A stretch of 64,000 bases of DNA from an uncultured virus (IMG/VR IMGVR_UViG_3300046517_000932) (Duplodnaviria; Heunggongvirae; Uroviricota; Caudoviricetes), in the IMG/VR virus record IMGVR_UViG_3300046517_000932. One strand, given 5' to 3'. The notes under the pieces are model-generated. The model saw nothing but the letters and a program-made list of their open reading frames with translations, did not search any database and was not told the DNA's origin. The first letter of the stretch is position 1; each line of letters starts with the position of its first letter. Of the stretch, positions 29,537 to 60,822 are shown piece by piece. A program made the translations under genes and the position numbers.

Positions 29537-29603
29537 CAAACTTCTCCGGTCGCAAACGGGCCGCCCAGTGCGATCCCTACGTATTGCGAACTTCCATAAA
29601 CCG

Positions 29604-29619
29604 ATTTTCGTGTCACGAC
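29604..29619 (-). promoter_or_regulatory. Putative late promoter for the lysis cassette GTCGTGAC-ACG-AAAAT
   Basis: Motif match; ATG 6 nt downstream. Confidence 0.75.
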
Positions 29620-29623
29620 ACAC

Positions 29624-29887
29624 TCAATCCGCGCGCGTACCCTCGTCCGCCTGAATGCTGTCGGGACAATGACCTGGCTGGATCCAGTTGAGAATGCCGC
29701 ACATGATCCGGCAGCCGATGCAGGCACCGTCACGCACGTTCTTGCCGAACACTGAGGAAAGCGTTTCGCCAGGATCCCCGAAACGCGCAGTTGGCTCCGG
29801 CCGAAGAATGAGATTCAGGAGAGGACCGAAGGCGGTATTCACCGCCTGGTCGAGAATGAGGAGAAGGTTCCAGAAGTACCGCGTCAT
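29624..29887 (-). CDS. Conserved phage hypothetical protein
   Basis: LDQAVN...GDPGETLSS..G...C..C...HC motif. Confidence 0.7.
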   Translation of the reverse strand: MTRYFWNLLLILDQAVNTAFGPLLNLILRPEPTARFGDPGETLSSVFGKNVRDGACIGCRIMCGILNWIQPGHCPDSIQADEGTRAD

Positions 29888-29917
29888 TCGATCAGCCTAC
29901 GTCAAGGACATAGGCTG

Positions 29918-29933
29918 ATCATTGCATCACGAC
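29918..29933 (-). promoter_or_regulatory. Putative late promoter variant GTCGTGAT-GCA-ATGAT
   Basis: One mismatch to the core; ATG 6 nt downstream; overlaps 10-bp hairpin 29890-29920. Confidence 0.55.
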
Positions 29934-30658
29934 CAGGTGATAGCCTGAACTGCAGCGACCGTCGTCGCCGCCATCACCTGCGCATAGAGCGCTTGATTCT
30001 TCGCCATGTTGGCAAGAATGGATGACTTGCCATCCACGCCGACCTGCTGAATCTGCGCAGCCGAATGGTTCACGAACGCCCAATTTCCAGAGGCGTCCTC
30101 GCACCAGAACGGCGTGACCCACATCTGCCACTGCGCACCACCATCGCTCGCGATCGCACCATCGGTAGTCGGCCATGTCGGCGCCGTCGCACCGCTGGTG
30201 CCGGCCGCGACGCACACGTAGAGCGCCGCCCCATCCTTGACGAGATCGCCTGCCGCACGGGCCTTTCCGGCGGTCCACGGCACGGCCGCATTGAGCGCCA
30301 GCAGCGCTGCAATGATCGAGGCGGACAGATTCTGCTGGTCCGTCGTCTTTGCGGGATACGTGTGCACGACGCCGAGCGCCGTCGACGTGAAGCCCGCGAC
30401 AATAGAGTCGGCACACGCAGCGGAAAGCATCGCGACCTGCGTCGCTTGCGCGCTCGCGAGAAGCTGCGCGGCCGTCGGCGCGACAGGCGCGACGAGTGCG
30501 CCACTCGCTACCGTATAACCATGCGTCGAAATGCACGTTTGCCATTGCGCCTCGGTGATATTGATCACCTGCGCGCCCGCCGGCGCGGGACTATCTACGC
30601 TGTCGTAATAGGCGACGATTGCGCCGGTTGCGTCATACGCTGCTTGTTTTTGGCCCAT
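29927..30658 (-). CDS. Tail fibre assembly protein (DUF4376-like) with inserted carbohydrate-binding-like module
   Basis: YDS...ITEAQWQ, DQQNL, FWC.D..G.WAFVNHSAAQIQQV; follows a fibre gene. Confidence 0.75.
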   Translation of the reverse strand: MGQKQAAYDATGAIVAYYDSVDSPAPAGAQVINITEAQWQTCISTHGYTVASGALVAPVAPTAAQLLASAQATQVAMLSAACADSIVAGFTSTALGVVHTYPAKTTDQQNLSASIIAALLALNAAVPWTAGKARAAGDLVKDGAALYVCVAAGTSGATAPTWPTTDGAIASDGGAQWQMWVTPFWCEDASGNWAFVNHSAAQIQQVGVDGKSSILANMAKNQALYAQVMAATTVAAVQAITWS

Positions 30659-30662
30659 GATT

Positions 30663-31412
30663 TTAGTTTCCGATTGCCTGCCAATAGAAATTCCCGGAAC
30701 TCGGTCCCTGAGAGCCGCCAATGTTCGTAAAACTCTTTACCCCGAACCCAGCCGGGGTAGCGTTGTAAATGCCGTAAATGGTGGTGTTGCTTGCGGACCA
30801 GCCCGCCGCGCCGCTTTCGATGGCGACCACTGAACGGCAGGCGTTCGGGAAGGCAATCGGGAACGTCATGTTCGCGTTTCCGCTTGTCGTTGATGCCGCG
30901 CCCCACTGGATAATCAGACCGCTAGGCAGCTTTTGATAGCCGGATGCGCCAATGGATGCCGCGAAAGTGCCAGTGTAAGAAGCCACATACCAGCCCGCGC
31001 CATTTGATACAAACTGCGCCACCTCACCAGCGGCCAGCGCAAACGTGTTTGCTGGCGCAGAGTATTGGCTATTGATTGACTCCGCAGCGTTGCCCTTCAC
31101 GATTGCGCCGACAGGCGCGGCTATCGTCACCGTGGAACCAGACGGCGCGCTAGAAATCGGCGGCAGCGTTTGCGTGGTGCTTGCGACAGTGATAAAAAGA
31201 AACGCGCCAAGGTGCGCCGATGCTGTTAGCGAAGACGATACCCCGATTCCGACCACGCCAGAAAACGACTCGCCATTGGCCTTAACCCATGCCGTCGTCG
31301 CAAGCTTCAGGGAGTTGTCAAACTGAGCCGGCGACTGATTCGCGAGGATGTTCCCCGCCCCATCGCCAGCGAGAAGCGCTGCAAGGGCCGCAAGAATTGC
31401 TGAACGGCTCAT
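30663..31412 (-). CDS. Second, short tail fibre / receptor-binding protein (gp53-like C-terminus)
   Basis: QFDNSLKLATTAWVK and GYQKLPSGLIIQWG...FPIAFPN...YWQAIGN. Confidence 0.75.
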   Translation of the reverse strand: MSRSAILAALAALLAGDGAGNILANQSPAQFDNSLKLATTAWVKANGESFSGVVGIGVSSSLTASAHLGAFLFITVASTTQTLPPISSAPSGSTVTIAAPVGAIVKGNAAESINSQYSAPANTFALAAGEVAQFVSNGAGWYVASYTGTFAASIGASGYQKLPSGLIIQWGAASTTSGNANMTFPIAFPNACRSVVAIESGAAGWSASNTTIYGIYNATPAGFGVKSFTNIGGSQGPSSGNFYWQAIGN

Positions 31413-31415
31413 CTA

Positions 31416-31856
31416 TCAAACTCCAATGAAATCAGGTGCGGCCGGAAGATCGACCGCAGGAAACCCGTCCGCCTTCGACAGGTCACGGAGCGCCTTGCGA
31501 TAAGCGGAAAGCGCCTTGAATTGCTCCGAGCTCAGCGTCGTCGCGTCGCCGGCGAGGACTTCGTCCTGGTGCCGTGCGACGAGCCAATCGGAATTGACAA
31601 GCGCGACGGTGCGTTGCGCGCGCAGCGACGCCGCGAGCTCGTTCTTAGTCGGCGCCGGCAGATCAACGAGCTTGGCCTTGCCGCTTTCGAGCACTTTCAT
31701 GCGCTTGCCGGCGGATTGGCCGGCAAGCAGCGCCGCATGGACGTCGTCAGTAATAGGAACGGCACTCACTGGGATTCGATCCGTGCCGTGCAGATCTGAC
31801 GAGTAAAAAGCGATCACAAAGCGATCCGAATCAAGATCGGCATATCGAATAGTCAT
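31416..31856 (-). CDS. Tail fibre assembly chaperone
   Basis: RAQR...L..SDW...AYRKALRDL....GFP...LP..P. Confidence 0.8.
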   Translation of the reverse strand: MTIRYADLDSDRFVIAFYSSDLHGTDRIPVSAVPITDDVHAALLAGQSAGKRMKVLESGKAKLVDLPAPTKNELAASLRAQRTVALVNSDWLVARHQDEVLAGDATTLSSEQFKALSAYRKALRDLSKADGFPAVDLPAAPDFIGV

Positions 31857-31861
31857 TTTCT

Positions 31862-33781
31862 TTAATACCCAATAGCGATCCAGTTGATTGCAAGACCCGC
31901 ACCGACGACAGCGCCGGAGGTCGTGATGTAGCCGGTAATGCCCATCGTCGTCGTGTTCAGCACCGTGACGTTTGCGGTGTACGCCCCGGATTGCTGAACC
32001 GTCGCCCAGCCACCGAACCATCCCGTCGGGAAAGTGGTCGGCAGCGTTTGCGTGATTACGCCAGACGAGTTGGTTGAGCCGCTGCCCCACTGGATGATCA
32101 AACCCGAGGGAAGCTTTTGATAGCCAGGCGAGGCGAGGAACGAGCCGAACGCGCTGGAGTACTTGAGCTGCGCCGATCCGCCGACGGCATACCAAATATT
32201 TGCGGAACCCCTGCTTTCAAGAATCAGGCTGTCGCCATTGTTCAGCGTGAAAGTTGTAGGGTTCGAACTGCTGGGAGCGAAAAGATCGCCAGACTGCTTT
32301 GCGATCGTCACCGCGCCGGGCGATACGTTAATAAACTCCACCCGCGCGCCGTCAGCAAACGAATTTGCCGCGTTCATCGTCACCGTAAAGGAGCCGGCAG
32401 CGCTTAAAACAATCGTGCTGCCCGCGAACGCTGGCGTGATAGGCCCGACACCCGTAACAACATTAACGTTAGATGCCTGCAAGCCTTGACGCTTCACAAA
32501 CGCGGTCGTCGCGAGCAATGTCGAGTTATCAAACTGCGCGGCCGTCACCCCCGTATCGCCGCCCGCCATCATGATCGGACCGGCCATCGTCCCGCCTGCG
32601 AACGGCAGAGCATTCGCGACCGTGAACGATGAATATGCGACGACCTGAATGTCGTCGTTAAGCACGGACGCGGTGCTGAGGACGACGCTCGAGCCGTTCG
32701 TCGCCGTGTAGTTCGCCGGCGAGATCTGCGCGCCGTTGACGATGACCGCGATATTGCCCGGCGTGTACGGGCAATTGAACGTCGTCTGCCCGGCCGTCGC
32801 CGTGAAGGTGTAAAGCGAGAACGCGCTCGATGCAGCCGCGCCCGCGAGCACGACGTTCGAACCGTCGCAGTACGCCACGACCGACTGCCCTTGAGGCACG
32901 AGCGCATTGGTGCCAGCGCCCCCGGACAGGTTGATCGAGTAAGCGCCCGTCGTCTTGTTTGCCACGACGTAGACGCCGCCCTGCGACGGCAGATTGACCT
33001 GAATGCTCGCCGTCAGCGCGCCCGTAAGCAGGACGATCCCGTTGCCGTACTGAGCGGCCGTCAGCGTGACGTTGGCTCCTCCCGCGACGTTGACCGTAAC
33101 GACGCCGTTCGTGAGCTGGTAGACAAAATTCGTCGTCGCGACCTTCGTGCTCTGATCGCCCGTTGCAGCCGTCGGCGCCGTCGCCGTCCCCGTGAGTGCT
33201 ACGTTGACGAAATCGCTCGAGGACAGAAGCACGTTCGTGCCATCGCAGAACAGCTCCTGCGTCTTGCCCTGCGTGACCGCGACGCCGGTACCGGATGCCG
33301 TCTTGACCGTCAGCGTGTAGGCGCCGGACGTCAGATTCTCGACGATCATCGTCTTCGTCGACGCCGGCACGATAACCGCGATGTTGGCAGTAAGCGCGCC
33401 CGTGAATACGAGGATGCCGTTACCCGCCTGCACGGACGTGAGCGTGACGTTCGAGCCACCCGCAACGTTGATCGACGCCAGGCCGTTGACCGTGCCCTGC
33501 ACGAATGCCGTCGTCGAGATCTTGGTCGAGTTGTCGCCGAGCGCGGGAGTCGGCGCCGTCGGCGTGCCCGTCAGATTCGCGTTATTGAGCGGCGCGACCG
33601 TCGGCGGAATGGTCGTCCCATTCTCGAGGTTCGTGACGTGCTGATACAGGTACGCGGTACGATTCGCGAGGTTGAGCAGCGGCGCATTCGATACCGCACC
33701 TACGCCGCCGTCGACCGGATCGATGACCTCGAGCTGGTAAACGCCGGCATCGTAACTTACGACTTCTGGCTGATATGCCAT
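31862..33781 (-). CDS. Tail fibre protein
   Basis: GVYQLE..DPV.GG...SN..L..LANRT.YL N-terminus; internal TGTPTAPT duplication; gp53-like C-terminus. Confidence 0.9.
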   Translation of the reverse strand: MAYQPEVVSYDAGVYQLEVIDPVDGGVGAVSNAPLLNLANRTAYLYQHVTNLENGTTIPPTVAPLNNANLTGTPTAPTPALGDNSTKISTTAFVQGTVNGLASINVAGGSNVTLTSVQAGNGILVFTGALTANIAVIVPASTKTMIVENLTSGAYTLTVKTASGTGVAVTQGKTQELFCDGTNVLLSSSDFVNVALTGTATAPTAATGDQSTKVATTNFVYQLTNGVVTVNVAGGANVTLTAAQYGNGIVLLTGALTASIQVNLPSQGGVYVVANKTTGAYSINLSGGAGTNALVPQGQSVVAYCDGSNVVLAGAAASSAFSLYTFTATAGQTTFNCPYTPGNIAVIVNGAQISPANYTATNGSSVVLSTASVLNDDIQVVAYSSFTVANALPFAGGTMAGPIMMAGGDTGVTAAQFDNSTLLATTAFVKRQGLQASNVNVVTGVGPITPAFAGSTIVLSAAGSFTVTMNAANSFADGARVEFINVSPGAVTIAKQSGDLFAPSSSNPTTFTLNNGDSLILESRGSANIWYAVGGSAQLKYSSAFGSFLASPGYQKLPSGLIIQWGSGSTNSSGVITQTLPTTFPTGWFGGWATVQQSGAYTANVTVLNTTTMGITGYITTSGAVVGAGLAINWIAIGY

Positions 33782-33791
33782 CCCTCAGTCC

Positions 33792-34244
33792 TTAGAACGA
33801 AATGGTCCACGTGCCCGAGAAAGTCAGGTCCGTGTCTTTGTTGAGAGGCAGCGTCCGCGTTTTGCGCGCGTACAGCGCTCCGCCTGCGGTAAGCAGTCCG
33901 AATTCCGAGATCGCTTTGCCGTTCGCTTCGGACGTGCCGAGCGAGAACGCGAATTGAACTTGATTCGTTGCCGGGTAGGAGTGCCCGTCGACGGACTTTG
34001 TGTATGCGCTGGTGAGCGCCGTATTGGCGAAAGCAGGTGCAACCGCACCCGTGCCAAACCCGATCTGCGTAACGCTTTGCCCGGTCACGTCGCCGCCGAG
34101 CAGCTTGGCGTGCGCCTGCTGTGAGCCGACTACGACCAGGTTTTTTTCTTCGAAAATCTCGATGAGCTTGCCGGCGCGGAAAACCTCCAGGTAGAAGTCT
34201 CCGCGCGGCTTACGCTCAAAATCATCCCGTAGGGAAAGGTTCAT
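33792..34244 (-). CDS. Baseplate/tail-fibre attachment protein
   Basis: IGFGTG...EANGKAISEFGL...LYARKT...NKD....SGTWTISF. Confidence 0.7.
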   Translation of the reverse strand: MNLSLRDDFERKPRGDFYLEVFRAGKLIEIFEEKNLVVVGSQQAHAKLLGGDVTGQSVTQIGFGTGAVAPAFANTALTSAYTKSVDGHSYPATNQVQFAFSLGTSEANGKAISEFGLLTAGGALYARKTRTLPLNKDTDLTFSGTWTISF

Positions 34245-34268
34245 GCCACGCCTCCAGTCTATTACTGG

Positions 34269-34284
34269 AGTTTGTTGTCACGAC
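34269..34284 (-). promoter_or_regulatory. Putative late promoter GTCGTGAC-AAC-AAACT
   Basis: Motif match; overlaps CTCCAGT/ACTGGAG hairpin covering GGAGG. Confidence 0.75.
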
Positions 34285-34293
34285 CTTTCCGCG

Positions 34294-38036: not shown

Positions 38037-38043
38037 TTTTTCC

Positions 38044-38661
38044 TTACGAGCTTGCCGCTACCTGAATTGATTGACCGACGACCGGAATCGCCTCGATGTT
38101 CACGTTCACCACATCGCCGTTCACGGTCGCAATCGCTTTATCGACGCTCGCGATGCGCGGATCCGCGAGCACGGCACCCTTGGCGGTAGATGCCGCGAGC
38201 AGTTGCTGCGCGGGCACGCTCACCTTGCCGATCAGCGTCTTGAGGAGCGATCCGTACCGCGCGTGATAGACGAGCTCGCCCTGCTGCGTCTCGACGCGGT
38301 TCTTGAGCGCCTGGCGCAGGTTTGCGCGCCCCGTCACGGTCGCGAAATCGCCCGTCGACGTTCCGCCGAGCAGGCCGTTCGTGAGCGCGATATCGGTGCC
38401 GTACACCTCGTTCGGATCCGTCGTCGTCGCGGCCGCAGAAGGAGCCGGGACGAGGATCTGCGAGCCCGTGAGGAGCACGCCTGGCGCAACCTGCGCAGGG
38501 TCATCCGTGAGGTACGGATAGACCAGGTTGTTCGGGTAGATCAGCAGCGCCCACTTCGACGCGTCGCCCAGCGCGCGCGCCGCGACCTTTTGCAGCGTGT
38601 CGCCTCGATTCGTCAGGACGAACGTGAAGCCATTCAGCGGGGTATCGAATGGCGTCGTCAT
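38044..38661 (-). CDS. LysM plus gp25-like baseplate protein
   Basis: GDTLQKVAARALGDASKW LysM; NLRQALKNR.....GEL.YH.RYGS...DPRI gp25-like. Confidence 0.8.
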   Translation of the reverse strand: MTTPFDTPLNGFTFVLTNRGDTLQKVAARALGDASKWALLIYPNNLVYPYLTDDPAQVAPGVLLTGSQILVPAPSAAATTTDPNEVYGTDIALTNGLLGGTSTGDFATVTGRANLRQALKNRVETQQGELVYHARYGSLLKTLIGKVSVPAQQLLAASTAKGAVLADPRIASVDKAIATVNGDVVNVNIEAIPVVGQSIQVAASS

Positions 38662-39818
38662 ACGTTCACCGTCATGCCGTTATTGGCGGCCGTCACCATC
38701 GCCGCGAGCTGCGCCGGCGTGTATGGCGCGAGCACCGGATCCATATGGGCCAGCGCCGACAGCGAAACCTGCGCGCCCGAGGTAAGCGCGACTGGACCAG
38801 GCGCGGCAGCGCTCATCGGCGCGACCGACTCGAACGCGTTCTTGTTTGCATAGGCCGAGATCGGCGAACCGCCCGCCGTGCTCGAGCAGTTAGACGCGCC
38901 GAACAAAGGCGTGTAGTCCTGGTAGACGCTCTGACCCGTCAGCGCGTTTTTGAGCAGGCAGCCGATGTTTGTGAACGCGCTCGTAAGGCCCATAATTTGG
39001 CCCTTGATCTGGCCCGGGAGATTCATCACGGCCGAGATCGTTTGAAAGACCTTTGTCGCGCACTGCACGAGCGTCGTCGCGACGCTCATCAGCGCTTTCC
39101 CGATGCCGAGCACAGAGCTCACCGCACCCATCACGGCGTTACACACCTTCGTCACGTTTGCAACGAACGCCTTAACCGGCGCGAGAACGTTCGTATTGAT
39201 CCAGGACGAGATCCCACTCATGAATGAGGTGATCTCGCCGATCGACTGCAGCAGGCTATCCAGACCGCTCGAGAGCAGCGACCCAGCGCTCTGCGGCGCC
39301 GCCGGCAGGCTATACGCGCCTAGCACGTCGCTCGTGACCGTCATCGGAATCTGGTACTGCATGAGGAGCGGCCGCGAGCGCGAGCGGCGCAGCACGACCT
39401 GGCCGGGGATAACCTGGCTGGTGAATTGATCGAGTGCGTCGACGAACATGAGCTGGACATAGTCCGGCCGGCCGCCGCTCTGATAAGCCGCGAGCCGCTT
39501 CGCGTGCCACTGGTCGAACACAAGCGTCTTGAGATCGATGAAACGCTGGATCCCGTCCTTTGCGGCCGAGTCCGTCATCCAGCCGGTATTGCCGGAGATA
39601 TTGATGGTCGGAACGCCTGCGCCGAACTCATCGCCCCATGCGCCGCCCAGCGTCTGCTGCACTGTCGTGCGCGACGGATCCGTGCGCGTCAGCTCCTCCG
39701 GACGCACGTAGAGTTTGACCTCAGTCGGCGCGTCGCTATTGTTCAAGTCGAACAATAGAAAACTGATCGGCGCGTCGCCGGCCTTTTGGGACGAAGGGGT
39801 AGAGGCGAATAAGCTCAT
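38658..39818 (-). CDS. Baseplate/tail tube initiator-like protein
   Basis: RPEEL....PSR..VQQTLGGAW.DEFG.G...I.ISG.TGW; position in the baseplate cluster. Confidence 0.6.
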   Translation of the reverse strand: MSLFASTPSSQKAGDAPISFLLFDLNNSDAPTEVKLYVRPEELTRTDPSRTTVQQTLGGAWGDEFGAGVPTINISGNTGWMTDSAAKDGIQRFIDLKTLVFDQWHAKRLAAYQSGGRPDYVQLMFVDALDQFTSQVIPGQVVLRRSRSRPLLMQYQIPMTVTSDVLGAYSLPAAPQSAGSLLSSGLDSLLQSIGEITSFMSGISSWINTNVLAPVKAFVANVTKVCNAVMGAVSSVLGIGKALMSVATTLVQCATKVFQTISAVMNLPGQIKGQIMGLTSAFTNIGCLLKNALTGQSVYQDYTPLFGASNCSSTAGGSPISAYANKNAFESVAPMSAAAPGPVALTSGAQVSLSALAHMDPVLAPYTPAQLAAMVTAANNGMTVNV

Positions 39819-39824
39819 TGAAGC

Positions 39825-39840
39825 ATCGTAGTGTCACGAC
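39825..39840 (-). promoter_or_regulatory. Putative late promoter GTCGTGAC-ACT-ACGAT (leaderless)
   Basis: ATG at 39818 exactly 6 nt downstream; no SD. Confidence 0.75.
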
Positions 39841-48009: not shown

Positions 48010-48843
48010 CTAGTTGGGAGATACAACGGTTACTTCCACATCGACGATCGGGTCGACTTGATCGCCCACCACGACAGGCGCCATGCACGTGAACGTGCCG
48101 GCGGCCTGGTAGACCGGCGCCGGATATTCCCCGCTCACCGCATCAACGTCCTGCATGGAAAACTCGGGCTGAACCATGCCGGCGCTATCGAACACGGGCA
48201 GGTTGCCGATCACGATTCGGCGAATCGCCTTGCGCAGCGCGATCCGCTCATCAGGGTTTTGCGTCCATCCGATCACGGCGATCTGAACGCTTGCGAGCCA
48301 ACCCTCGGACTCCGTCCATTGGTTTGCGGCCTCATCGAACGAGTCCGCGAGGAACTGCTCGCCGAGCACGCGCTCAGACGGCGACTCGGACGTCAGGTGA
48401 ACGCTCACCATCGGCCAGCGACTGTCTTCGTACTGAGGAGGCGCAGTCAGCACGGGAATGGCTCCCGTTGCCGGCCGCAGCGTGCCGCGCGCCACTTCGA
48501 CGGAGAGTCCGGCCGCCAGGCGATCGCGAAACAGCGACAATGCATCGACGCTGTAGTCGACATAGGTCGCATTCGGAGTCGCAGTGGCAACGTTGCTCGC
48601 CGTCCACTCAACGCCGTCCCAATAGAACGCGCAGTAGTACATCGCGACGCCGTTCTGCAGGCCCGTCACATCGACCGCGTAGTTTTCGTCGCCTTCATAC
48701 GCGACAAACGCAGCCGGATCCGCTTCGCCAGCGAACGTGCCGGTACCGTTGCGCAGGATTCGCCAGCTAAGCGCGCCACTAGGCGGCGCAAGGAAAACCT
48801 TTAGCGCGTTACCGATTGGGAGTGCGACGACGAAAGAGATCAT
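48010..48843 (-). CDS. Tail completion/terminator-like protein with N-terminal FN3-like domain
   Basis: Gene position; WPMVSVHL..E; beta-rich N-terminus. Confidence 0.55.
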   Translation of the reverse strand: MISFVVALPIGNALKVFLAPPSGALSWRILRNGTGTFAGEADPAAFVAYEGDENYAVDVTGLQNGVAMYYCAFYWDGVEWTASNVATATPNATYVDYSVDALSLFRDRLAAGLSVEVARGTLRPATGAIPVLTAPPQYEDSRWPMVSVHLTSESPSERVLGEQFLADSFDEAANQWTESEGWLASVQIAVIGWTQNPDERIALRKAIRRIVIGNLPVFDSAGMVQPEFSMQDVDAVSGEYPAPVYQAAGTFTCMAPVVVGDQVDPIVDVEVTVVSPN

Positions 48844-48849
48844 GAGAGG

Positions 48850-48890
48850 AGTTTGCTGTCACGACCGCGCGCGCGACGTGACGCTAAACT
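48850..48890. promoter_or_regulatory. Back-to-back late promoters
   Basis: Minus copy GTCGTGAC-AGC-AAACT (48850-48865) and plus copy GACGTGAC-GCT-AAACT (48875-48890). Confidence 0.75.
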
Positions 48891-48911
48891 GCTGTCAAGG
48901 AGGTGTTTCGC

Positions 48912-49766
48912 ATGGCTGAATTCAAAATCGCTGTCGACCTGTCTGCGGTAATAAACGCGGTACCGGTGATCACCCGGCAGGTGTTTCCACTGGTCAATCA
49001 AACGATTCGCGCCATCGCGCAGCAGACGCACGCGAACTGGATGGAGTCGGTCTATCGGGCGAAGCTATGGAGTGGCGAGAAAGACGCCTACGCGAAGTCG
49101 ATCACCTGGGAGATGACCGGAGACTTTTCCGCCGTCGTGCAGAGCGACTATAAGAACGCGGACGAGATCGAGACCGGCCGGCCGCCGTACGACCTCAAGC
49201 AGATGCTGAACACGTCGCCGAAGGTGCGACGAACGAAGGACGGTCGACGCTTCATGATCATCCCCTTCCGGCAGAACACGACCGGATACGACGCGCTCAC
49301 CTCGAGCATGCCGCAGGACGTCTATGACGCTGGATCCGCGCTCAAAGCGAGCTCGATCGTCGGCCAGGCCAAGCGCGCGTCAGGCGAGATCACCTCGATT
49401 CATCCGAAGTGGGGCACACAGGTTCTCAAGAAGCAAACGCCGTTCGCCTCGAACACGAAGACGCGCGGACCGATGCTGGTCAACAAGAACATCTATAAAT
49501 GGGGAGGCAAGCTCGACACGAGCGGCATGACGGGACTAAGCGACGCGCAGAAGAAGCGCTATAACGGCATGGTGCGGATGACCGGCGCCACACCGGGAGG
49601 CGGCCGTTACAGTCAATTCATGACGTTCCGCGTGATGATGGAAGGCTCGAGCGGATGGATAATCCCCGCGCGCCCGGGCCTGTACCTGGCGAAGAAAGTC
49701 GCAGACAAGATGCAACCGCTCGCCGAGAAAGTCCTCAACGAGGCGGTTGCACAGTCGTTCAAGTAG
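48912..49766 (+). CDS. Virion morphogenesis (neck-type) protein on the opposite strand
   Basis: AAGGAGG RBS; IETGRPPYDLK...IIPFR, MTFR...S.GWIIP.RPG. Confidence 0.65.
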   Translation: MAEFKIAVDLSAVINAVPVITRQVFPLVNQTIRAIAQQTHANWMESVYRAKLWSGEKDAYAKSITWEMTGDFSAVVQSDYKNADEIETGRPPYDLKQMLNTSPKVRRTKDGRRFMIIPFRQNTTGYDALTSSMPQDVYDAGSALKASSIVGQAKRASGEITSIHPKWGTQVLKKQTPFASNTKTRGPMLVNKNIYKWGGKLDTSGMTGLSDAQKKRYNGMVRMTGATPGGGRYSQFMTFRVMMEGSSGWIIPARPGLYLAKKVADKMQPLAEKVLNEAVAQSFK

Positions 49767-51515: not shown

Positions 51516-51517
51516 AC

Positions 51518-52063: not shown

Positions 52064-52140
52064 GAAAAGCTCCTCAATGAAAAAGGCCGCCGGCGGATCA
52101 GTCCGACGACGGCCTCATGGCAATAAAACACGCCGACGGC

Positions 52141-52407: not shown

Positions 52408-52424
52408 AGCTCACCCTTTGAGGG

Positions 52425-52685
52425 TTATGCCGCCGGCGCAGTCGCATCCGTCGCCGCAGGTGCGGCAGGTGCGGCCGCGTCTTCGGCCGGGATCAGCGGT
52501 GCCTGGGCAGCAGCGGCATCCTTAGCCGCATTTTTGCCGTGCAACACGTAGCCCTTGATGGACAGGAGCACCTGCGCGACCTCGTCGTCGATTTCTTCCG
52601 AGATCATGCCGAGCTTGTGCGAAACGAACTTGATGCCGTTGATCAATTCCGAACCGTTGCCGAGAGTCCAAATAACCTTTGCCAT
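52425..52685 (-). CDS. Small hypothetical protein
   Basis: AGGAGG RBS; Ala/Pro-rich tail. Confidence 0.6.
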   Translation of the reverse strand: MAKVIWTLGNGSELINGIKFVSHKLGMISEEIDDEVAQVLLSIKGYVLHGKNAAKDAAAAQAPLIPAEDAAAPAAPAATDATAPAA

Positions 52686-52758
52686 ACAACCTCCTGGAAA
52701 TTTTCAAGAAGGCCGCGCACCTCCCGATGCGCGGCCCGTTTCGCCTACCGACTAACGA

Positions 52759-54264: not shown

Positions 54265-54288
54265 ATTTACCTCGAGTTGCGCCTGAAA

Positions 54289-54927
54289 TTAGGCAAGTAC
54301 TTTGGAAACCAGCGCCGGATCAATCGCAGCGTTTTGGCGGATGCAGACGTCGATCGTCGTGAACTCGAGACCGGTGATCCGGCCTGCGCTGAACGCGGCG
54401 TCCGACTTAGCCAGGAACTCTTTCGGAGTCAGGCCTTCGTCTGTTTGGGACTTCTTCAGCTCGCCGGCAGCGACCTTTTCGGTCAAAGCGAGAACCGTCT
54501 TGCGGCCGCGACCTTGCCCTGCGAGCTCCTCAACGCGAGCCATCAGCGACTTGATCAGCGTGCCTTGCGTCTTCACCACGCCGAGCGTCGACTCGAGGGC
54601 CTTCGCCATCGTGTCTTCGTGCGAGCCAACTTGACCCTTGAGAGCGCCGATGTCAGCGATCAGGGACTTGACCAGCTCGGTACCGTCGACTGCGTCGATC
54701 GAATTGCCTTCGGCGTCCGTGAGCGTCATCGACTTGCCCATCAGCTCGCCCGGATCCTTGTCCTCGTCGTCTTCGTCGTCGTCCGGGTTGACGTTGTCGT
54801 TACCGCCGCCTTCACCAGCGGCGGCTTGGATTTTTGCGTCATCCTTACCGTCGTCCGCCGGGAGAGCCTTGGTCATTGCCTCGTTGTCGGCCTGCAGCTC
54901 GCCGAGCAACTGTTCAAACTGACTCAT
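54289..54927 (-). CDS. Head scaffolding protein
   Basis: Acidic, coiled-coil; between protease and capsid genes. Confidence 0.65.
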   Translation of the reverse strand: MSQFEQLLGELQADNEAMTKALPADDGKDDAKIQAAAGEGGGNDNVNPDDDEDDEDKDPGELMGKSMTLTDAEGNSIDAVDGTELVKSLIADIGALKGQVGSHEDTMAKALESTLGVVKTQGTLIKSLMARVEELAGQGRGRKTVLALTEKVAAGELKKSQTDEGLTPKEFLAKSDAAFSAGRITGLEFTTIDVCIRQNAAIDPALVSKVLA

Positions 54928-55832
54928 GACTTACTCCGTTTGTTGAGTCCTACCTTCAAATCGCGCATAAAGCGCTCCGTGTATTCAGCCGCCTCATCGA
55001 GAGAGAGACCGAAATGTCTTGCGCAGTGCTCGACGATCTCGCGCGCGCCCGGGTTCTTCAGGGACTTGCCGCGCAGATCACCGGCGAGCCTGTCGCGGAA
55101 ATCGAAATAGTTGACGGGCCTGCCCGTGTCGAGCGACCGAACGCCGAGAGCAGCGCCGCCAGTGAGAGATGCGCTATCAGTGCCGTAGCCGGCCTCGAGC
55201 GCCTTTGCGAACATGAGTCCCGATGCGCCCCAGCACTTCGCCAGTGCGCCGAAAGGGATCGTTTGAGCCGTCGGCAGGTTCTGATTCACCGGCGTGCGCG
55301 AGAGCGCGACGTTCGTCCAACGGACCTTTTCAACGACGCCGATCTTGTTCTTCGTTTCCGGATCGATCTGCACGCTCTTAGCGAGCACAGCGCCGCCGAC
55401 GGACGGATACCACCGCTTAGGCGGATCGATCTGCGTCATCGAGTCCCAAACCATGTTGGCGTTTTTCGCCAGATCGGAGTCGCCGCGAAACAGCTTTGCC
55501 TTGACGAACGTGCGCTTACCTTCGATGCGGACGTCAGACGGACGGCCGATCTCGTACTGCTCCGGATTCGGGAGACCGACCCAGCCCTTAGCCGGGTTCG
55601 GTTTGCCGATCAGGCTGTAGTGGTCAAGATCGACGTTGCCGAACTTCAGGTAGTGCTCCGCGCTGTCCTCGAGTGCTTTCGCCATCACGCGCTCGTTCTG
55701 CTGATCGAGCTTCTCGTTGCTGGCCTCGAAATAGATGAAGCGATCTCCGCCTTCTTCGGCAGGGATTGCCTTGAACATCGATTCGATGGTCAAGAAGTCG
55801 GGGATGTCCGCGAGGAGTTGTGTGTCTTCCAT
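54924..55832 (-). CDS. Prohead protease
   Basis: ASNE..DQQNE, DLDH, SVGG, NVALSRTPVN. Confidence 0.8.
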   Translation of the reverse strand: MEDTQLLADIPDFLTIESMFKAIPAEEGGDRFIYFEASNEKLDQQNERVMAKALEDSAEHYLKFGNVDLDHYSLIGKPNPAKGWVGLPNPEQYEIGRPSDVRIEGKRTFVKAKLFRGDSDLAKNANMVWDSMTQIDPPKRWYPSVGGAVLAKSVQIDPETKNKIGVVEKVRWTNVALSRTPVNQNLPTAQTIPFGALAKCWGASGLMFAKALEAGYGTDSASLTGGAALGVRSLDTGRPVNYFDFRDRLAGDLRGKSLKNPGAREIVEHCARHFGLSLDEAAEYTERFMRDLKVGLNKRSKS

Positions 55833-55838
55833 GCCTAA

Positions 55839-55854
55839 AGTGTCGTGTCACGAC
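55839..55854 (-). promoter_or_regulatory. Putative late promoter GTCGTGAC-ACG-ACACT (leaderless) for the head operon
   Basis: ATG at 55832 exactly 6 nt downstream. Confidence 0.75.
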
Positions 55855-55900
55855 TTTGGCGCGTAGCATGGAATGCTCGAAAAAAGGTAAGCGGAAAATG

Positions 55901-55926
55901 AAAAAAGGCACCCGAAGGTGCCTTTC
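55901..55926 (-). terminator. Intrinsic terminator
   Basis: AAGGCACC-TTCG-GGTGCCTTTTTT. Confidence 0.85.
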
Positions 55927-55943
55927 ATTGGAGTGGATACTGC

Positions 55944-56204
55944 TTAGGACTGGGACAGATTCTCTTTTGCCTTGGCGATTACCTGGTGCAGCGTGCCGCG
56001 CTCGTTGATCAGATCCTGATACTTCTCGACCTGCTTATCGTCGCCCGCCAGCGCCGCCGCCCGCGCCGGTTCGAGCTGGCCCTCGACGACCTCGAGCCGA
56101 GCCGTCGCCAACTTCAGGATCTTGCGCTCCATCTCGTCGGTTTGATGCGCCATCGCAGCGAGCTCGCCCAGGTTCCCACGGACCTTATCGGGATTCGGTT
56201 GCAT
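55944..56204 (-). CDS. Small helical hypothetical protein
   Basis: GGAGG RBS; operator at 56244-56259 upstream; own terminator. Confidence 0.7.
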   Translation of the reverse strand: MQPNPDKVRGNLGELAAMAHQTDEMERKILKLATARLEVVEGQLEPARAAALAGDDKQVEKYQDLINERGTLHQVIAKAKENLSQS

Positions 56205-56246
56205 TGCGTGCCTCCACGCGTTAGGTAATCATGGCCGACAGTATAA

Positions 56247-59200
56247 TCAAAAAAGATTATGCGTGTCGGATTGTTGTTCCGCTTGACGCTGCTTGAGAAA
56301 GTATGCGACGCCCGTGTCATCGAGCCCCTCGAGCGACGAGCTCATCAGATCGCGCATCTCGTATTTCTTCTCGAGGCGATCGCGCGCGCGCGTTTCCTCC
56401 GGATGGTTCGCCTGCATGTCGATCAGCTCGACGTCGCGGGTTTGCCCGAGGCGATGGATCCGCGCATTGCGCTGCGCATGCGTCTTCGCTGTCGCCGGAA
56501 TGTCGTGCTGGATCAGGTACTCGCCCGACTGCAGGTTCATGCCGACGGCGCCAGCGTCCGACGCGATTAGGATGTCCGCCTGCGCGTCGCCCTTCTCCGG
56601 GTTGAACATCTGGCGCTTGCGATCCTTTTCCTTGGCGCTATCGCTGCCGGTGATCGTCACCACGCGCTTACCCTCTTTCTCGAGGCGCGCCTTGATCGCC
56701 TCGACGGCCGCGCGGTTCCGCGCGAACACGACGCCCTGCTTGTTGCCGCGCGCCTTGACGAGATCCGCGATCCGGTTGACCTTCGCATTGTCCGGATGCG
56801 TATCGATGATCCGCTGCATCGCGGCCGACTTCATGATCCCGATGCTTTTCTGCAGCCCTTCGGCGACCTTCTCGTGATCCGCCGCCGGAACGCCCTCGAA
56901 CGACGACGGCGAGATCGCTTTGATCGCCGCGACGTCGACCTTGCCGCGCATGCGCGCGATACGTACCGCCGCCAGGTTCGACGACAGTGTGTCCATCGCC
57001 GTCTTCTGCGCAGGCGTCAGATCGACCGTCTCGCGCTTGCGCTTCGCCTCGACGTCCGGCGTGATCGATGCCGGGAAGGTGTAGCGCGCCATCTCGCGCT
57101 TGAGCGCATCTTTCGACGCCATCGTGTCGGCGCCATACCGGCGCATGAACGCGGCCCGGTCCTGGTAGCGCTTCGGATCCAGCTTTTGCAGCATCGAATA
57201 CACCTCAGACGTGTCGTTTTTGAAACCCGACTCGCCCGACGCATAGGTGTAGTACGGCGTGTGCGCGGACAGCGCGTCCGTCACGTTCGCCAGGGTCGAA
57301 TTCTCTTTGCCGGCACGGTTGAGGGTGTCGTGCGCCTCGTCGATAAACGACGCGTCGAAGTTGATCCCCTCCTTGTCCATCACGCCCTTGATCCAAGCCT
57401 GGCGATCGTCCGGCGTCATCTTGCCGAGCTGCTCGGTCATCGCGTCCTCGTCGATGCCGGCGTGCTTGGCGCCGAGGTGCACCATGTCGCCCCGGAATGA
57501 TTGATGGGTCATCACGCAGATATGCGTGTCCGGATCCTTGTACGCCGCGATGCGCGACTCCTGCGACGCGCCCGGCTCGATGTGCCACTTGAACTTTCCC
57601 GGCTCGAGCAGGCGCAACGCCTCGCCGGAAAACTGCCCTTGCACGACGCTGGGGACCAGCATGACGCCGCGCTTGACCTTGCCGAGCCCGTGCAGATGCG
57701 CGAACCCGCCGAGCATCACGTTCGTCTTGCCGGATCCGGCGCCGAACGCCAGGCCGAGGCGCTTGTTATCCGCAAGCATCTTGATCGCGCGCTGCTGATT
57801 GGCGTACTTGCCGTTCATCGACACGTTCCACATCTTTGTCGGCTTGCCGGCTTTGAAATTCTGTCCGACGATGCCCATCATGCCGGCGATCTGGCGTTCC
57901 GCCTCATGCCCGATCGTGTGCCGCTCATCGCCCGCGAGCGCGCGCTCTTTCGGAGCTTCCGCAGCGCCGCCGAACATATCCGGCTCATCGCCTGCGAAAA
58001 AGCCCATCTGGCTTTGCTCGAACGCCTCGCGCTGATCACGCGCCGCGTCGAGCTTGTCGGAGACACTGCCGGCCGCGTAACGACCGTCGACGCGCTCGCG
58101 CAGACTGTCCGTGAGCTCGCGCTCACGCGCGCGCCGCTGATCGCGCGCGGCATGGTCGGTCGCGTCGAGGTGATTCAGGTTGTTGCGCACGACGGCGCGG
58201 CCGATCTTGAGCGGGTTGCCCGGATTCAGCTTGTTATGCGCCTCCGCGAACGCCCGCGAGACCTTCGACTTGATCAGATCCTGCACAGCCTCGTACGCTT
58301 TGGCATTGCCGCCCATCGTATCGAGGTACTTGCCCCAGGTCAGCGACGACGCGTTGATTTTGCCCGCGAGCTCGTCGCGCTGCGCTTTCCAGTCCGACCA
58401 CTCCGGGTTTTCGGCCGTGTCGCCGAACATATCGGTCGTCTCTTTCTCCGGTTCGTTCGCGCTCAGCCGCTCGAGATCCTGGCGCATCGCGCCGGCCTCC
58501 GGGCTTTCCTTGGCGACGTTCTTGTAGAAGTGCTCACGCAGCGCGGCCTGGTCCTGATTCGTGAGATCCCCGATCTGCTTGTAGGCGGCCGTTCCTTCCG
58601 GATTCTCCGCCAACGCGCGATGCAGCGCCTCGACCGCTTTCTGGTCGACCGTGAACTTTTGGCGGTTCATCGGCGATCGCGTCGCCCCGTGCCGCGCCTC
58701 GACGAACTCGTCCGCATACTTGTCGAACGATTCGCCCAGCTCCTCCGCGCGGCGCATGTTGCCGTCTTCGCCCTTGAGCGGCGCGACCGTGTCGAGTGCC
58801 GCGCGGTACTGCTCCGCGCGATCCGCGCCGACCTTCTGGAAGAAGTCGCCCGACTGGATGTCCGCGACGATATCGCCCGGCGCGTCGCCGTCTGCCGTGC
58901 GCCCGCCGATGTAATCCCGAAGCGACTGCTCGAGATCCGCGCCAGGTGCGAACGGCTCTGCGATGCGCGGCGCGACGCCCGGCTGAACGTCCATCGCCAG
59001 ATCGGGACGGTTCGCGACGCCGAGCGGAAGCCAGTTTTCTTCGTCCTGGCCGCCGCCGATGATGTCGAGGTTGCGCTTCACCTGCTCGATGTCCGCGCGA
59101 TCGATCGGCTTTGCCAAGCGATCCATGCCGGCGCCGTTGACCGTCAGGAAGGTGTCGCCGCCGACGTTCTCGACCTGGTAGTCGCCGCGCTGCAGGCCGA

Positions 59201-60800
59201 GTGCGCGCGCCTGGCGAATTGCGTCCTCGACGCCTGTCTTGCCGAGCGAGACCTCGAGCTTTTCCTTTTTCCCCTGTTTGAGCGCGACCGACAGCGCCGC
59301 GTTCGCTTCCATCTCGCCCAGCGCCTGCCCGAGGATCTTCTGCGCCTCGCCGATCGCCTCGCGCCTGGTACCGTTCATCGCCTGCGCCGTCTGCATGTCG
59401 GTGCCGCTCGCCGCGTCGCCGAGCTCGATCTCTTTGACCGCTTTCATCAGGTCGCGCGATCGGCCCATCGCCTCCGCGCTCGCCTGCATGTAGTGGTGCA
59501 TGTGGAAATCCTGCACGCCGGCCTGGATCCGCTCGACGTCGTCCGGCATGTCGGTATGGATCCGGCGCGCGAGCACCTGCGCCGCGCCGGCGATGCCGAG
59601 CACGTCGACGACACTGCGATCGACCAGCGCGTCGCCGCTCACGGCCAGCGCCAGGGAATTGACGCTGTTGTAGGCGCCGATGCCGATATGCTTGCCGAGC
59701 GTCTCCGACGGTTCCCCGCCGGCGATCTTGCCAACCTCAGAGAGGAACGTCAGGGTTTGCGCCGTGCGCAGATCCTGCTCGATGTCCTTCGCGATTTTCT
59801 CGTCCGCGTCCGGATCCGCCGTGTACTCGAGTACGTAGGCTTTCGGCTCGACGGTTGCCTTGTCGATCTCCGCCTTTGCCTGCTTCGCCTTGTCCTGAAA
59901 CTGCTTGAGCGCCTTTTGAGCGCGCAGCAGCTCGACCGCCTTTTGAGCGCTCGTCAGGGTTGCATCCGGTACCGGTGCGATCGGCTCGCGAATGTTCTTC
60001 AGCTCCTCGCGCACCATGCGCGCGGTGTCGCCGCGCTTGACCGCCGCCTCACGCTGCCCGTCCGTCATCGTCGCGAGCTTCTTCGCACGGGCCTGGTCGA
60101 CCTCCGTGCGCAGATCCTGCTCCGTCAGACCGGCTTTCTCCGCACGGCCCTTGTAATCCTTCGCGTAGCCGAGCCCGTCGGATACCTGCGGCACCGGGTT
60201 CAGATCCTGAACCGTGAGCGTCGCCGGATCTTCGGTATGAACCGGAATCTCGCCGATGCCGGCCTCCATGCGCGCCGCGCTGTCTGTCACCAGGCGTTCC
60301 CGCTGCAGGCCGACGGCGTCCGTCGCGCGCTTCAGGATCTCGCGATGATGCTGCGCCTCGAGCTTCTTCTGTGCCGCCGGAGACAGATCCTTGTGCGCCT
60401 GCGCATCGAACTCGGTGTCCTTCTTGTCCCAGCCGAGCGCCTGCGCAACGGTGTCGACGAACTCCTTCTCCGCCTTTTTCTTCTGCACCTGGATCGCATC
60501 ATGAGCCTTTTGCTTAGACTCATGAATGCCGGCCTCCTTATCGGCCTTGACCTTGGCTTTCTTCGCTTTGGCCGCGTCTGCCTTCTTTTGCGCGGCCTCA
60601 GCTTTGTATTCGGACTCGTGCTTGACTGCCCGCAGCCGCAGGTGATTCATGGATCCGCCGGCACCGCCGATCACCGTGCTCGAGCCGTCTGCATTCGGCT
60701 GGATCAGGATAGGCTGGCCCGTGCCATCGCCGTGCGAATGGACCGTAATCCACCGGGCTCCGGCGGGAATGGATGCTTTGAGGAGGAGAATTTTGCGCAT
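56247..60800 (-). CDS. Giant SNF2-like helicase/ATPase protein (DarB-like, probably virion-packaged)
   Basis: GAGSGKT, FIDEAHD, SDAGAVGMNLQ and QRNARIHRLGQ in the C-terminal third; about 1000 aa uncharacterised N-terminus. Confidence 0.8.
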   Translation of the reverse strand: MRKILLLKASIPAGARWITVHSHGDGTGQPILIQPNADGSSTVIGGAGGSMNHLRLRAVKHESEYKAEAAQKKADAAKAKKAKVKADKEAGIHESKQKAHDAIQVQKKKAEKEFVDTVAQALGWDKKDTEFDAQAHKDLSPAAQKKLEAQHHREILKRATDAVGLQRERLVTDSAARMEAGIGEIPVHTEDPATLTVQDLNPVPQVSDGLGYAKDYKGRAEKAGLTEQDLRTEVDQARAKKLATMTDGQREAAVKRGDTARMVREELKNIREPIAPVPDATLTSAQKAVELLRAQKALKQFQDKAKQAKAEIDKATVEPKAYVLEYTADPDADEKIAKDIEQDLRTAQTLTFLSEVGKIAGGEPSETLGKHIGIGAYNSVNSLALAVSGDALVDRSVVDVLGIAGAAQVLARRIHTDMPDDVERIQAGVQDFHMHHYMQASAEAMGRSRDLMKAVKEIELGDAASGTDMQTAQAMNGTRREAIGEAQKILGQALGEMEANAALSVALKQGKKEKLEVSLGKTGVEDAIRQARALGLQRGDYQVENVGGDTFLTVNGAGMDRLAKPIDRADIEQVKRNLDIIGGGQDEENWLPLGVANRPDLAMDVQPGVAPRIAEPFAPGADLEQSLRDYIGGRTADGDAPGDIVADIQSGDFFQKVGADRAEQYRAALDTVAPLKGEDGNMRRAEELGESFDKYADEFVEARHGATRSPMNRQKFTVDQKAVEALHRALAENPEGTAAYKQIGDLTNQDQAALREHFYKNVAKESPEAGAMRQDLERLSANEPEKETTDMFGDTAENPEWSDWKAQRDELAGKINASSLTWGKYLDTMGGNAKAYEAVQDLIKSKVSRAFAEAHNKLNPGNPLKIGRAVVRNNLNHLDATDHAARDQRRARERELTDSLRERVDGRYAAGSVSDKLDAARDQREAFEQSQMGFFAGDEPDMFGGAAEAPKERALAGDERHTIGHEAERQIAGMMGIVGQNFKAGKPTKMWNVSMNGKYANQQRAIKMLADNKRLGLAFGAGSGKTNVMLGGFAHLHGLGKVKRGVMLVPSVVQGQFSGEALRLLEPGKFKWHIEPGASQESRIAAYKDPDTHICVMTHQSFRGDMVHLGAKHAGIDEDAMTEQLGKMTPDDRQAWIKGVMDKEGINFDASFIDEAHDTLNRAGKENSTLANVTDALSAHTPYYTYASGESGFKNDTSEVYSMLQKLDPKRYQDRAAFMRRYGADTMASKDALKREMARYTFPASITPDVEAKRKRETVDLTPAQKTAMDTLSSNLAAVRIARMRGKVDVAAIKAISPSSFEGVPAADHEKVAEGLQKSIGIMKSAAMQRIIDTHPDNAKVNRIADLVKARGNKQGVVFARNRAAVEAIKARLEKEGKRVVTITGSDSAKEKDRKRQMFNPEKGDAQADILIASDAGAVGMNLQSGEYLIQHDIPATAKTHAQRNARIHRLGQTRDVELIDMQANHPEETRARDRLEKKYEMRDLMSSSLEGLDDTGVAYFLKQRQAEQQSDTHNLF

Positions 60801-60806
60801 GACCCA

Positions 60807-60822
60807 ATGCTAGGGTCACGAC
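60807..60822 (-). promoter_or_regulatory. Putative late promoter GTCGTGAC-CCT-AGCAT (leaderless)
   Basis: ATG at 60800 exactly 6 nt downstream. Confidence 0.75.

Follow-up and report, generated by a model that had tools for sequence, protein, structure and literature searches.

In a 64,000-nucleotide (nt) stretch of DNA from an uncultured Caudoviricetes phage (IMG/VR record IMGVR_UViG_3300046517_000932), a compact signal of the form GTCGTGAY-N2-nAnnAT stands at a fixed distance ahead of the start codons of four genes, which encode an SNF2-like helicase, the prohead protease, a 277-amino-acid (aa) adaptor or tail-completion protein and a 386-aa baseplate protein. The signal probably acts as a promoter that yields leaderless mRNAs at these four genes. 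Its geometry and its statistics can be read directly from the DNA, as can its conservation in related phages together with the N-termini of the proteins that follow it. The whole stretch analysed is called the window below. It reads as part of a PHB04-like myovirus, being syntenic with the 94-kb Bordetella phage vB_BbrM_PHB04 (PHB04 below) with 76% nucleotide identity in the head genes. The phages of this family have genomes of about 90 kb, and their hosts are Proteobacteria (Beta- and Gammaproteobacteria). In Proteobacteria few mRNAs are leaderless, and the general view is that such mRNAs are poorly translated by E. coli.

The signal and its geometry

An earlier note on this DNA had reported a motif followed by 6 nt and an ATG at positions 39818, 48843, 55832, 60800, 29597 and 29911, and this spacing is present at all six, each on the minus strand. 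Every site is built from the octamer GTCGTGAC, 2 nt, a -10-like hexamer (nAnnAT), 6 nt and the ATG, and at the 29933 site the octamer reads GTCGTGAT instead. The note had also seen no properly spaced Shine-Dalgarno (SD) sequence. None of the six sites has a usable one, because the hexamer takes up the position in which an SD would have to lie.

The exact octamer occurs 11 times in the window, with ten copies on the minus strand, compared with a mean of 3.98 in shuffled sequence, and none of 100 shuffles reached 11. Copies with one mismatch show no enrichment in the window (101 observed, 93 expected). Eleven window sites fit the fuller pattern octamer-N3-A-N2-[AC]T, and at six of them an ATG begins exactly 14 nt past the octamer (binomial P = 5e-9).

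Gene starts

To judge from their reading frames, the ATGs at 39818, 48843, 55832 and 60800 are the sole possible starts of the conserved 386-, 277-, 302- and 1517-aa proteins. An in-frame stop lies four to six codons upstream of each, which in three of the four is the TGA within the octamer, and the interval from this stop to the ATG holds no alternative start. Downstream, another in-frame start is not reached for 14-59 codons; it is without a ribosome-binding site, and its use would remove conserved residues. The helicase gene, which matches a PHROG DNA helicase and has an N-terminus conserved in PHB04 and in the relatives L007 and L009, is a case in point: an in-frame TAG lies four codons upstream of its ATG, and the next in-frame start is codon 43, with no SD.

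The other two ATGs, on the same reckoning, do not start the real genes. Reading from 29597 meets a stop after six codons, and the holin-like gene begins at 29536 behind GGAG; reading from 29911 meets a stop after four codons, and an 87-aa gene begins at 29887. The four-codon mini-open reading frame (mini-ORF) of the 29911 site recurs in the relatives L066 and L120, and at the 29597 site L066 has retained the ATG with a different mini-ORF peptide. That transcripts begin on the A of the AUG, as the earlier note proposed, would be the best reading at four of the six sites, where it fits all of the sequence tests; 29597 and 29911 would instead open 5'-terminal mini-ORFs ahead of leadered genes.

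Several GenBank starts in related phages are set too far downstream: those of the ST4 portal gene (L016 16604), Dolphis gp15 and gp25 (L017 14320 and 23688) and PHB04 gp014 and gp066 (13976 and 59527). In each of these genes a promoter-adjacent in-frame ATG upstream restores the N-terminus shared by the relatives.

Conservation in related phages

Both strands of 12 sequences (452,179 bp) were scanned for the signal. The set comprised the window, the whole of PHB04, 25-41-kb stretches of Touem01, ECML-606-1, ST4, Dolphis, fHe-Yen8-01 and Mecenats66, and four IMG/VR loci, with the near-duplicates L005, L006, L008, L011 and L012 excluded. The signal was found 66 times, with no site in the scanned stretch of Mecenats66. 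An ATG begins 14 nt past the octamer at 31 of the 66 sites and 15 nt past it at 11 (P = 1e-38), and all remaining offsets have at most five sites each, save offsets 3 and 6, which fall inside the hexamer. Conservation of the spacing in homologous phages, which the earlier note had named as a check, is borne out, with an ATG 6 or 7 nt past the hexamer at 42 of the 66 family sites. Thirty-seven of these 42 ATGs open ORFs of at least 60 aa and five open short ORFs; the other 24 sites have no ATG there.

All 37 long ORFs that begin at the predicted transcription start (+1) do so with ATG, and none with GTG or TTG. Their first 42 nt fold weakly, with -6.1 kcal/mol compared with -11.9 kcal/mol for internal windows of the same genes (weaker in 34 of 37, Wilcoxon P = 2e-9), and have a G+C content of 54.6% compared with 62.1% internally. 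Weak 5' structure fits genuine initiation sites in general, leaderless or not. Of the remaining late genes behind a gap, most have a recognisable SD, and those without one mostly overlap the preceding gene, as far as crude gene calls can tell.

The N-termini of the portal, terminase, protease, helicase, 277-aa adaptor and 386-aa baseplate proteins, and of a 384-aa protein, are conserved across the phages. The protease gene has the octamer 14 or 15 nt ahead of its ATG in nine IMG/VR relatives (49-100% amino-acid identity), and the 277-aa gene was seen in ten genomes, those of E. coli and Yersinia phages among them, and has the leaderless arrangement in all of them. The 386-aa baseplate gene is arranged in the same way in PHB04, Touem01 and Dolphis. 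For the protease gene the arrangement is leaderless in Bordetella, Pseudomonas and Aeromonas phages, and in the enterobacterial members the 277-aa gene is the sole one to keep it. The protease leader of the enterobacterial members may reflect adaptation to hosts in which leaderless mRNA is poorly translated. In the E. coli phage ECML-606-1 (L015 19957-20003) and the Yersinia phage fHe-Yen8-01 (L018 3726-3772), the +1 ATG is followed directly by TTT TGA, and the start of the protease lies 22 nt beyond +1.

Over whole genomes, 20 sites were counted in the complete close relative G002 (8 leaderless, 3 with a +1 ATG opening a short ORF), 12 in PHB04 (7 and 0), 12 in Touem01 (6 and 0), 10 in ST4 (4 and 1) and 9 in ECML-606-1 (1 and 1). 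A scan of IMG/VR with the exact pattern gave at least 127 stretches with at least 128 matches. Among the matches listed, the frame of 102 of 128 runs on without a stop for 33 codons, mostly in genes of the same families, and N-terminal lengths vary whereas the distance from ATG to octamer is constant. As a control the ATG was shifted by 3 nt, which matched 108 stretches in the whole collection compared with at least 127 for the true pattern, two figures from which no enrichment ratio is drawn. One copy in PHB04 (25908-25935, minus strand) has its ATG 13 nt past the octamer, where it opens a 13-codon ORF; about 190 nt of strongly folding RNA (-91.7 kcal/mol) follow, and then the helicase promoter.

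A probable promoter without a -35 box

The signal is very probably a promoter that lacks a -35 box and has its start point at the A of the ATG; start site, mode of translation and timing are what we infer from the sequence. It is always oriented towards the next gene, it often directly abuts the T run of a terminator, and in divergent intergenic regions, e.g. before the portal gene in PHB04, Touem01 and Dolphis, it is the sole conserved element. In a logo of the 66 sites the octamer forms a box at -22 to -15 and the hexamer has the consensus cAnaAT. No position from -62 to -23 is conserved, which leaves no -35 box. The copies at 48865 (minus strand) and 48875 (plus strand) stand back to back with 9 bp between them, and therefore have no space for -35 boxes.

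Canonical sigma-70 promoters occur at chance level in the three stretches scanned for them (e.g. 4 compared with 4.7 expected, and 3 compared with 3.6). Nor does the signal match an extended -10 promoter of sigma-70, in which a TG occupies -15/-14, one base ahead of the hexamer: the TG of the octamer is at -18/-17, and positions -15/-14 read C/T and g. Positions 2 and 6 of a -10 hexamer hold its two key bases, A and T, and the hexamer A and T of the signal match these in position if transcription begins 7 or 8 nt later. In PHB04 both are also carried by almost every intergenic copy of GTCGTGA, the octamer without its last base.

The base preceding the ATG is C at 19 of 26 offset-14 sites and C or T at all 11 offset-15 sites. 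At the 29 leadered promoters the predicted +1 is A in 14, and reads AT in 11 (P = 8.5e-8), CA in 6 and ATG in 5. The start is placed at the A of the ATG because four independent features agree on it, namely the hexamer bases, the ATG offset, the start dinucleotide and the pairing between leader and promoter described below. No phage RNA polymerase or sigma factor was found with Pfam and PHROGs among the PHB04 and window proteins, and therefore the host enzyme must be used.

The signal would then be a phage-specific, -35-less promoter used by host RNA polymerase together with a phage factor. Transcription would start 7 or 8 nt past the hexamer, at an A usually preceded by C. At the four window genes this A would be that of the ATG, giving mRNAs with neither leader nor SD, on whose 5'-terminal AUG ribosomes would have to initiate. 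Each of the four genes would depend on its own promoter, because the internal copy of the AUG on read-through RNA lacks a ribosome-binding site. The earlier claim that these genes are translated solely from their own promoter is plausible in view of the strong terminators at 55903-55926 and 61119-61138 and the divergent gene before 48843. Its description of the promoters as late goes further than the sequence does. The same signal is also found before non-structural genes, among them those of the replicative helicase (22008) and a metallophosphoesterase (13711, plus strand).

Hairpins straddling the predicted start

Hairpins that straddle the predicted start at leadered promoters are a new observation. 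At the 29 leadered promoters, pairing between the 13 nt from -12 to +1 and the initial 40 nt of the transcript has a mean energy of -9.77 kcal/mol, compared with -6.58 kcal/mol for cross-pairings, and none of 5000 permutations was as low. The 37 leaderless promoters show no such pairing (-6.15 compared with -5.88 kcal/mol, 992 of 5000 permutations). Each 5' arm begins somewhere from -10 to -6 and stops between -3 and +1, and the SD or the AUG lies within the 3' arm. In relatives two of the stems are followed by T runs. Stems of the window are listed in Table 1; other sites that bear them are in PHB04, Dolphis, ECML-606-1, fHe-Yen8-01 and ST4. The promoters before the baseplate-J gene in ECML-606-1, fHe-Yen8-01, ST4 and Dolphis carry a stem in all four phages, with sequences that are all different.

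RNA begun at +1 escapes the fold, because it is missing the 5' arm. RNA that comes from upstream and contains both arms would be masked at the SD or AUG, or terminated. The probability that the SD or AUG is unpaired favours the promoter's own RNA over read-through RNA at most sites, in a comparison with RNA length uncontrolled and start codons picked automatically.

Table 1. Promoter copies, stems, terminators and candidate genes in the window
Feature	Position	Strand	Details
SNF2-like helicase promoter and start	60798..60822	-	octamer 60815-60822; hexamer TAGCAT 60807-60812; ATG 60798-60800; coding sequence 56247-60800, 1517 aa
Prohead protease promoter and start	55830..55854	-	octamer 55847-55854; hexamer GACACT 55839-55844; ATG 55830-55832; coding sequence 54924-55832, 302 aa; PHROG head maturation protease
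277-aa adaptor / tail-completion promoter and start	48841..48865	-	octamer 48858-48865; hexamer CAAACT 48850-48855; ATG 48841-48843; coding sequence 48010-48843
386-aa baseplate / tail-tube-initiator-like promoter and start	39816..39840	-	octamer 39833-39840; hexamer TACGAT 39825-39830; ATG 39816-39818; coding sequence 38658-39818; Pfam Phage_tail_tube_init
Promoter with mini-ORF	29891..29933	-	GTCGTGAT 29926-29933; ATG at predicted +1 29911; 4-codon mini-ORF 29897-29911; gene 29624-29887
Promoter with mini-ORF	29577..29619	-	octamer 29612-29619; ATG at predicted +1 29597; 6-codon mini-ORF 29577-29597; holin-like gene 29180-29536 after 61-nt leader with GGAG
Promoter with leader	34252..34284	-	octamer 34277-34284; predicted +1 34262; gene 33792-34244
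One-mismatch copy	48875..48897	+	GACGTGAC, then hexamer TAAACT; predicted +1 48897; gene 48912-49766 via 15-nt leader beginning AAGGAGG
Signal before replicative helicase gene	21986..22008	-	gene 20215-21972; octamer pattern, PHROGs
Sole exact plus-strand copy	13711..13752	+	ahead of metallophosphoesterase gene 13754-15076; predicted +1 13733
Signal	3197..3236	-	octamer 3229-3236; predicted +1 3214
Signal before gene 1002-1661 and terminase large subunit gene	1683..1705	-	octamer pattern, PHROGs
Stem	34252-34270	-	5' arm upstream of +1; 3' arm over GGAGG of gene 33792-34244
Stem	3197-3222	-	5' arm upstream of predicted +1 3214
Stem	29891-29919	-	9 bp, -23.7 kcal/mol; straddles predicted +1 29911
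Stem	13723-13752	+	straddles predicted +1 13733
Intrinsic terminator between helicase operon and protease promoter	55903..55926	-	10 pairs, then T run
Intrinsic terminator upstream of helicase promoter	61119..61138	-	terminator scan
Adjacent pair of Cys-rich genes	7057-7581 and 6779-7063	-	174 aa and 94 aa; head of leftward operon adjoining divergent control region; core non-structural

Alternative explanations

The stems bear on an unlikely alternative, in which the octamer is itself the -10 equivalent of a phage-modified polymerase. On this view the RNA would begin some 8 nt ahead of the ATG, inside what is here called the hexamer, the mRNAs would have a fixed SD-less leader of 8-9 nt, and the stems would shield the 5' end as terminal hairpins. 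Their 5' arms do begin where such hairpins would begin, and the octamer is conserved far better than the hexamer. However, this alternative gives no reason for the fixed distance to the ATG, makes a coincidence of the match to the two key -10 positions, and leaves unexplained the C-A/AT conserved at the predicted +1 of leadered promoters. It is rated low because some promoters would then work against their own genes: ahead of the PHB04 holin gene and Dolphis gp28 the transcript would run through a full terminator hairpin and T run before it came to the gene, and other stems would sequester the promoter's own SD.

It is decidedly improbable that the proteins start at these ATGs but are made mainly from read-through RNA, through SD-independent internal initiation or coupling, with the +1 ATG reflecting a promoter preference for A-U-G. 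The ATG (5 of 29) and AT (11 of 29) at the +1 of leadered promoters would suit such a preference, and several other late window genes without a clear SD overlap the preceding gene. However, each of the four genes is the first after a gap of at least 45 nt, a terminator or a divergent gene, so coupling is unavailable to it, and the 37 of 66 promoters that exactly abut a long ORF are far above what a 3-nt sequence preference would give.

Least probable is a motif that acts in RNA, as a processing site just before the AUG in long late transcripts or as the operator of a translational regulator; the fixed distance to the start codon would suit this, as would the fact that no reader protein was found, but the motif also lies 9-61 nt or more from start codons with a normal SD, abuts terminator T runs, opens units in divergent regions where no same-strand RNA is expected from upstream, leaves the -10-like A and T unexplained and has no Rfam match in the window.

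Several points weigh against the promoter with its start at the A of the ATG as well. The site pattern imposes A at -11 and T at -7, which makes the logo circular at those positions, and the hexamers are weak, with three or four of six matches to TATAAT. We know of no sigma contact that reads 8 bp at -22 to -15, where the octamer lies. Five +1 ATGs open no genes, and part of the ATG signal may therefore be a promoter preference. The P values are too small, because orthologous sites in related phages are not independent. Searching sequencing runs with the window DNA gave 18 DNA rows (17 from rhizosphere and one from a soil metagenome) and zero RNA runs. In Pseudomonas, moreover, leaderless mRNAs are rare: in Pseudomonas aeruginosa PAO1, leaders shorter than 10 nt were found at 55 of 2187 start sites, and in phage phiKZ at none (PMC8244752).

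Comparison with known systems

Leaderless translation of morphogenesis genes had been called unusual for a proteobacterial phage, and the precedents found in the literature searched are indeed in phages of Thermus. In the Thermus phages Lalka27a and phiYS40, many late promoters have a distinctive -10 element and no -35 box, as described in a preprint (bioRxiv 10.64898/2026.04.20.719267). There, the starts of Lalka27a were mapped 6 bp past the -10 element, most transcripts are leaderless, and a phage factor is suspected to alter the specificity of the polymerase (bioRxiv 10.64898/2026.04.20.719267). On that description, the promoters of the two groups are alike in having a -10 element close to the start codon and no -35 box, and in being leaderless, as mapped in Thermus and predicted here. 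The prohead proteases of this family and of the Thermus phages are distant relatives (30% identity). The elements themselves differ, the Thermus phages having TAGGGT with a conserved C at -25, whereas here the signal is GTCGTGAY-N2-nAnnAT and -25 is unconserved. The hosts differ too, being Deinococcus-Thermus there and Beta- and Gammaproteobacteria here; in Deinococcus-Thermus a -10 box adjoining the ORF is a common host pattern (PMC12340547).

In Proteobacteria, the nearest architecture appears to be that of the late promoters of phage P1, which are activated by Lpa with the host protein SspA (PMC1891329, PMC8201110). The two are alike in the use of host polymerase, in the -10 hexamer without a -35 box, and in a conserved box just upstream, which in P1 is read by a phage protein. 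The P1 record NC_005856 has an annotated 9-bp '-22 region' and -10 box. The P1 LPpac box and the octamer here both contain GTGAC, but the P1 box is 9 bp long and the gap between box and hexamer is 4 nt (LPpac) or 9 nt (LPhot) in P1, compared with 2 nt here. P1 pacA has a 35-nt leader with a ribosome-binding site, unlike the leaderless genes here.

The cI mRNA of phage lambda, made from PRM, is a leaderless mRNA of a proteobacterial phage and is translated from its 5'-terminal AUG. Lambda cI is a single regulatory gene behind a classical activated sigma-70 promoter, whereas here a set of morphogenesis genes lies behind a dedicated promoter class. E. coli mRNAs with a 5'-terminal upstream AUG plus a leader have been described (Beck, Fleming and Janssen 2016, PMC4965119). 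These resemble the 29619 and 29933 promoters, and likewise three sites in relatives, in having an AUG at the (here predicted) 5' end and a gene downstream; unlike them, the feature here recurs at orthologous promoters with a peptide that is not conserved. Late transcripts of AR9 have leaders of 26-491 nt.

No study of transcription in the PHB04 phage group was found in the literature, and the paper on Mecenats66 is silent on promoters. The octamer, searched as text, returned unrelated primers alone. Leaderless late messages are already known from Thermus phages, and P1 supplies a precedent for a promoter that has an upstream box and no -35 box. The motif, its occurrence in proteobacterial phages and the start-straddling hairpins were not found in the literature searched.

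Candidate readers of the octamer

A homologue of Lpa (PF25716) was found in none of five complete relatives at E <= 1 (best tblastn E = 1.2), nor did Pfam detect one among 69 proteins of PHB04 and 42 of the window. No sigma factor was found by Pfam among 69 non-structural PHB04 proteins and 42 window proteins, or by PHROGs among 58 PHB04 proteins. Regulator-like proteins that emerged from the Pfam and PHROGs scans are an AraC-type helix-turn-helix (HTH) protein (PHB04 gp048), small HTH_17 proteins and a TraR/DksA-like zinc finger. The HTH_17 protein at 13502-13705 occurs elsewhere in the family solely in PHB04 and was rejected as the reader, as it does not track the motif. The same applies to the TraR/DksA-like zinc-finger protein at 27370-27597 (plus strand), which is present in six records (five distinct phages) and does not track the motif. 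This protein is conserved in the Bordetella, Pseudomonas and Aeromonas members, and tblastn found none in the E. coli, Enterobacter, Yersinia and Morganella members.

Comparison of five complete genomes gave a core of 49 ORFs, shadow frames included, and the non-structural part of this core includes a pair of adjacent Cys-rich genes. Both members of the pair are present in the same ten of 50,697 phage records, which represent all nine distinct clade phages and none elsewhere. Co-occurrence alone makes the pair a candidate for the octamer reader; no function is claimed for it. The 174-aa protein has 165 relatives, none with a Pfam domain. Its fold is modelled with confidence (pLDDT 88.6), and no match was found in the PDB (best hits with the whole model, Foldseek E = 0.7 and VIA Z = 2.7; best hit by sequence, HMMER E = 0.19). 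The 94-aa protein is annotated as particle-associated in Yersinia phage fHe-Yen8-01.

The window also encodes a 76-aa protein (2064-2294, minus strand) that matches Pfam RMF with E = 4e-7 and 30.4 bits (cut-off 27.9) and the NCBIfam Rmf/CrpP family with 30.3 bits (cut-off 28). It falls under the RMF equivalog cut-off (34.4 compared with 40). RMF covers the anti-Shine-Dalgarno region of the ribosome, and a link between this protein and leaderless translation is tempting. Against such a link, CrpP-like proteins are common on mobile elements, and none is present among the small PHB04 ORFs scanned. A search of the window with Rfam gave no matches.

Other features of the window

The G+C content of the window is 62%. 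A virion and lysis module occupies 27.6-64 kb on the minus strand (PHROGs), with genes for the spanin, endolysin, tail fibres, baseplate, tape measure, sheath, major head protein, protease, 1517-aa helicase and a large cargo protein. The rest consists of replication genes and small genes without an assigned role. One window protein has its closest homologues in Caballeronia and Paraburkholderia records.

Implications

A wider scheme can be put forward tentatively, in which translation is gated by the promoter throughout the clade: the first gene of a unit would be translatable solely on RNA from its own promoter. This could be achieved in two interchangeable ways, by placing the AUG at +1, or by setting a hairpin across the start with one arm immediately ahead of +1, which leaves read-through RNA alone able to fold. 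The fold on read-through RNA would mask the SD or AUG, or would terminate the RNA. Mini-ORFs with a 5'-terminal AUG, such as the MF-stop before the protease of the E. coli and Yersinia phages and the four-codon ORF before 29887, could load ribosomes at the 5' end and would be a third form. In this scheme the Cys-rich pair would contribute to reading the octamer.

The portal, terminase, protease, adaptor and baseplate genes of a widespread phage family appear to be expressed from leaderless mRNAs. If this is true, it would provide a natural set of strongly expressed leaderless mRNAs in Pseudomonas, Bordetella, Aeromonas and E. coli hosts, in which initiation at a 5'-terminal AUG could be studied. 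It would also define a promoter of just 16 bp that needs no -35 box, and would correct gene starts that annotation pipelines seeking ribosome-binding sites have set too far downstream, as in the ST4, Dolphis and PHB04 genes named above. Finally, it would suggest a way in which these phages tie translation to the choice of promoter.

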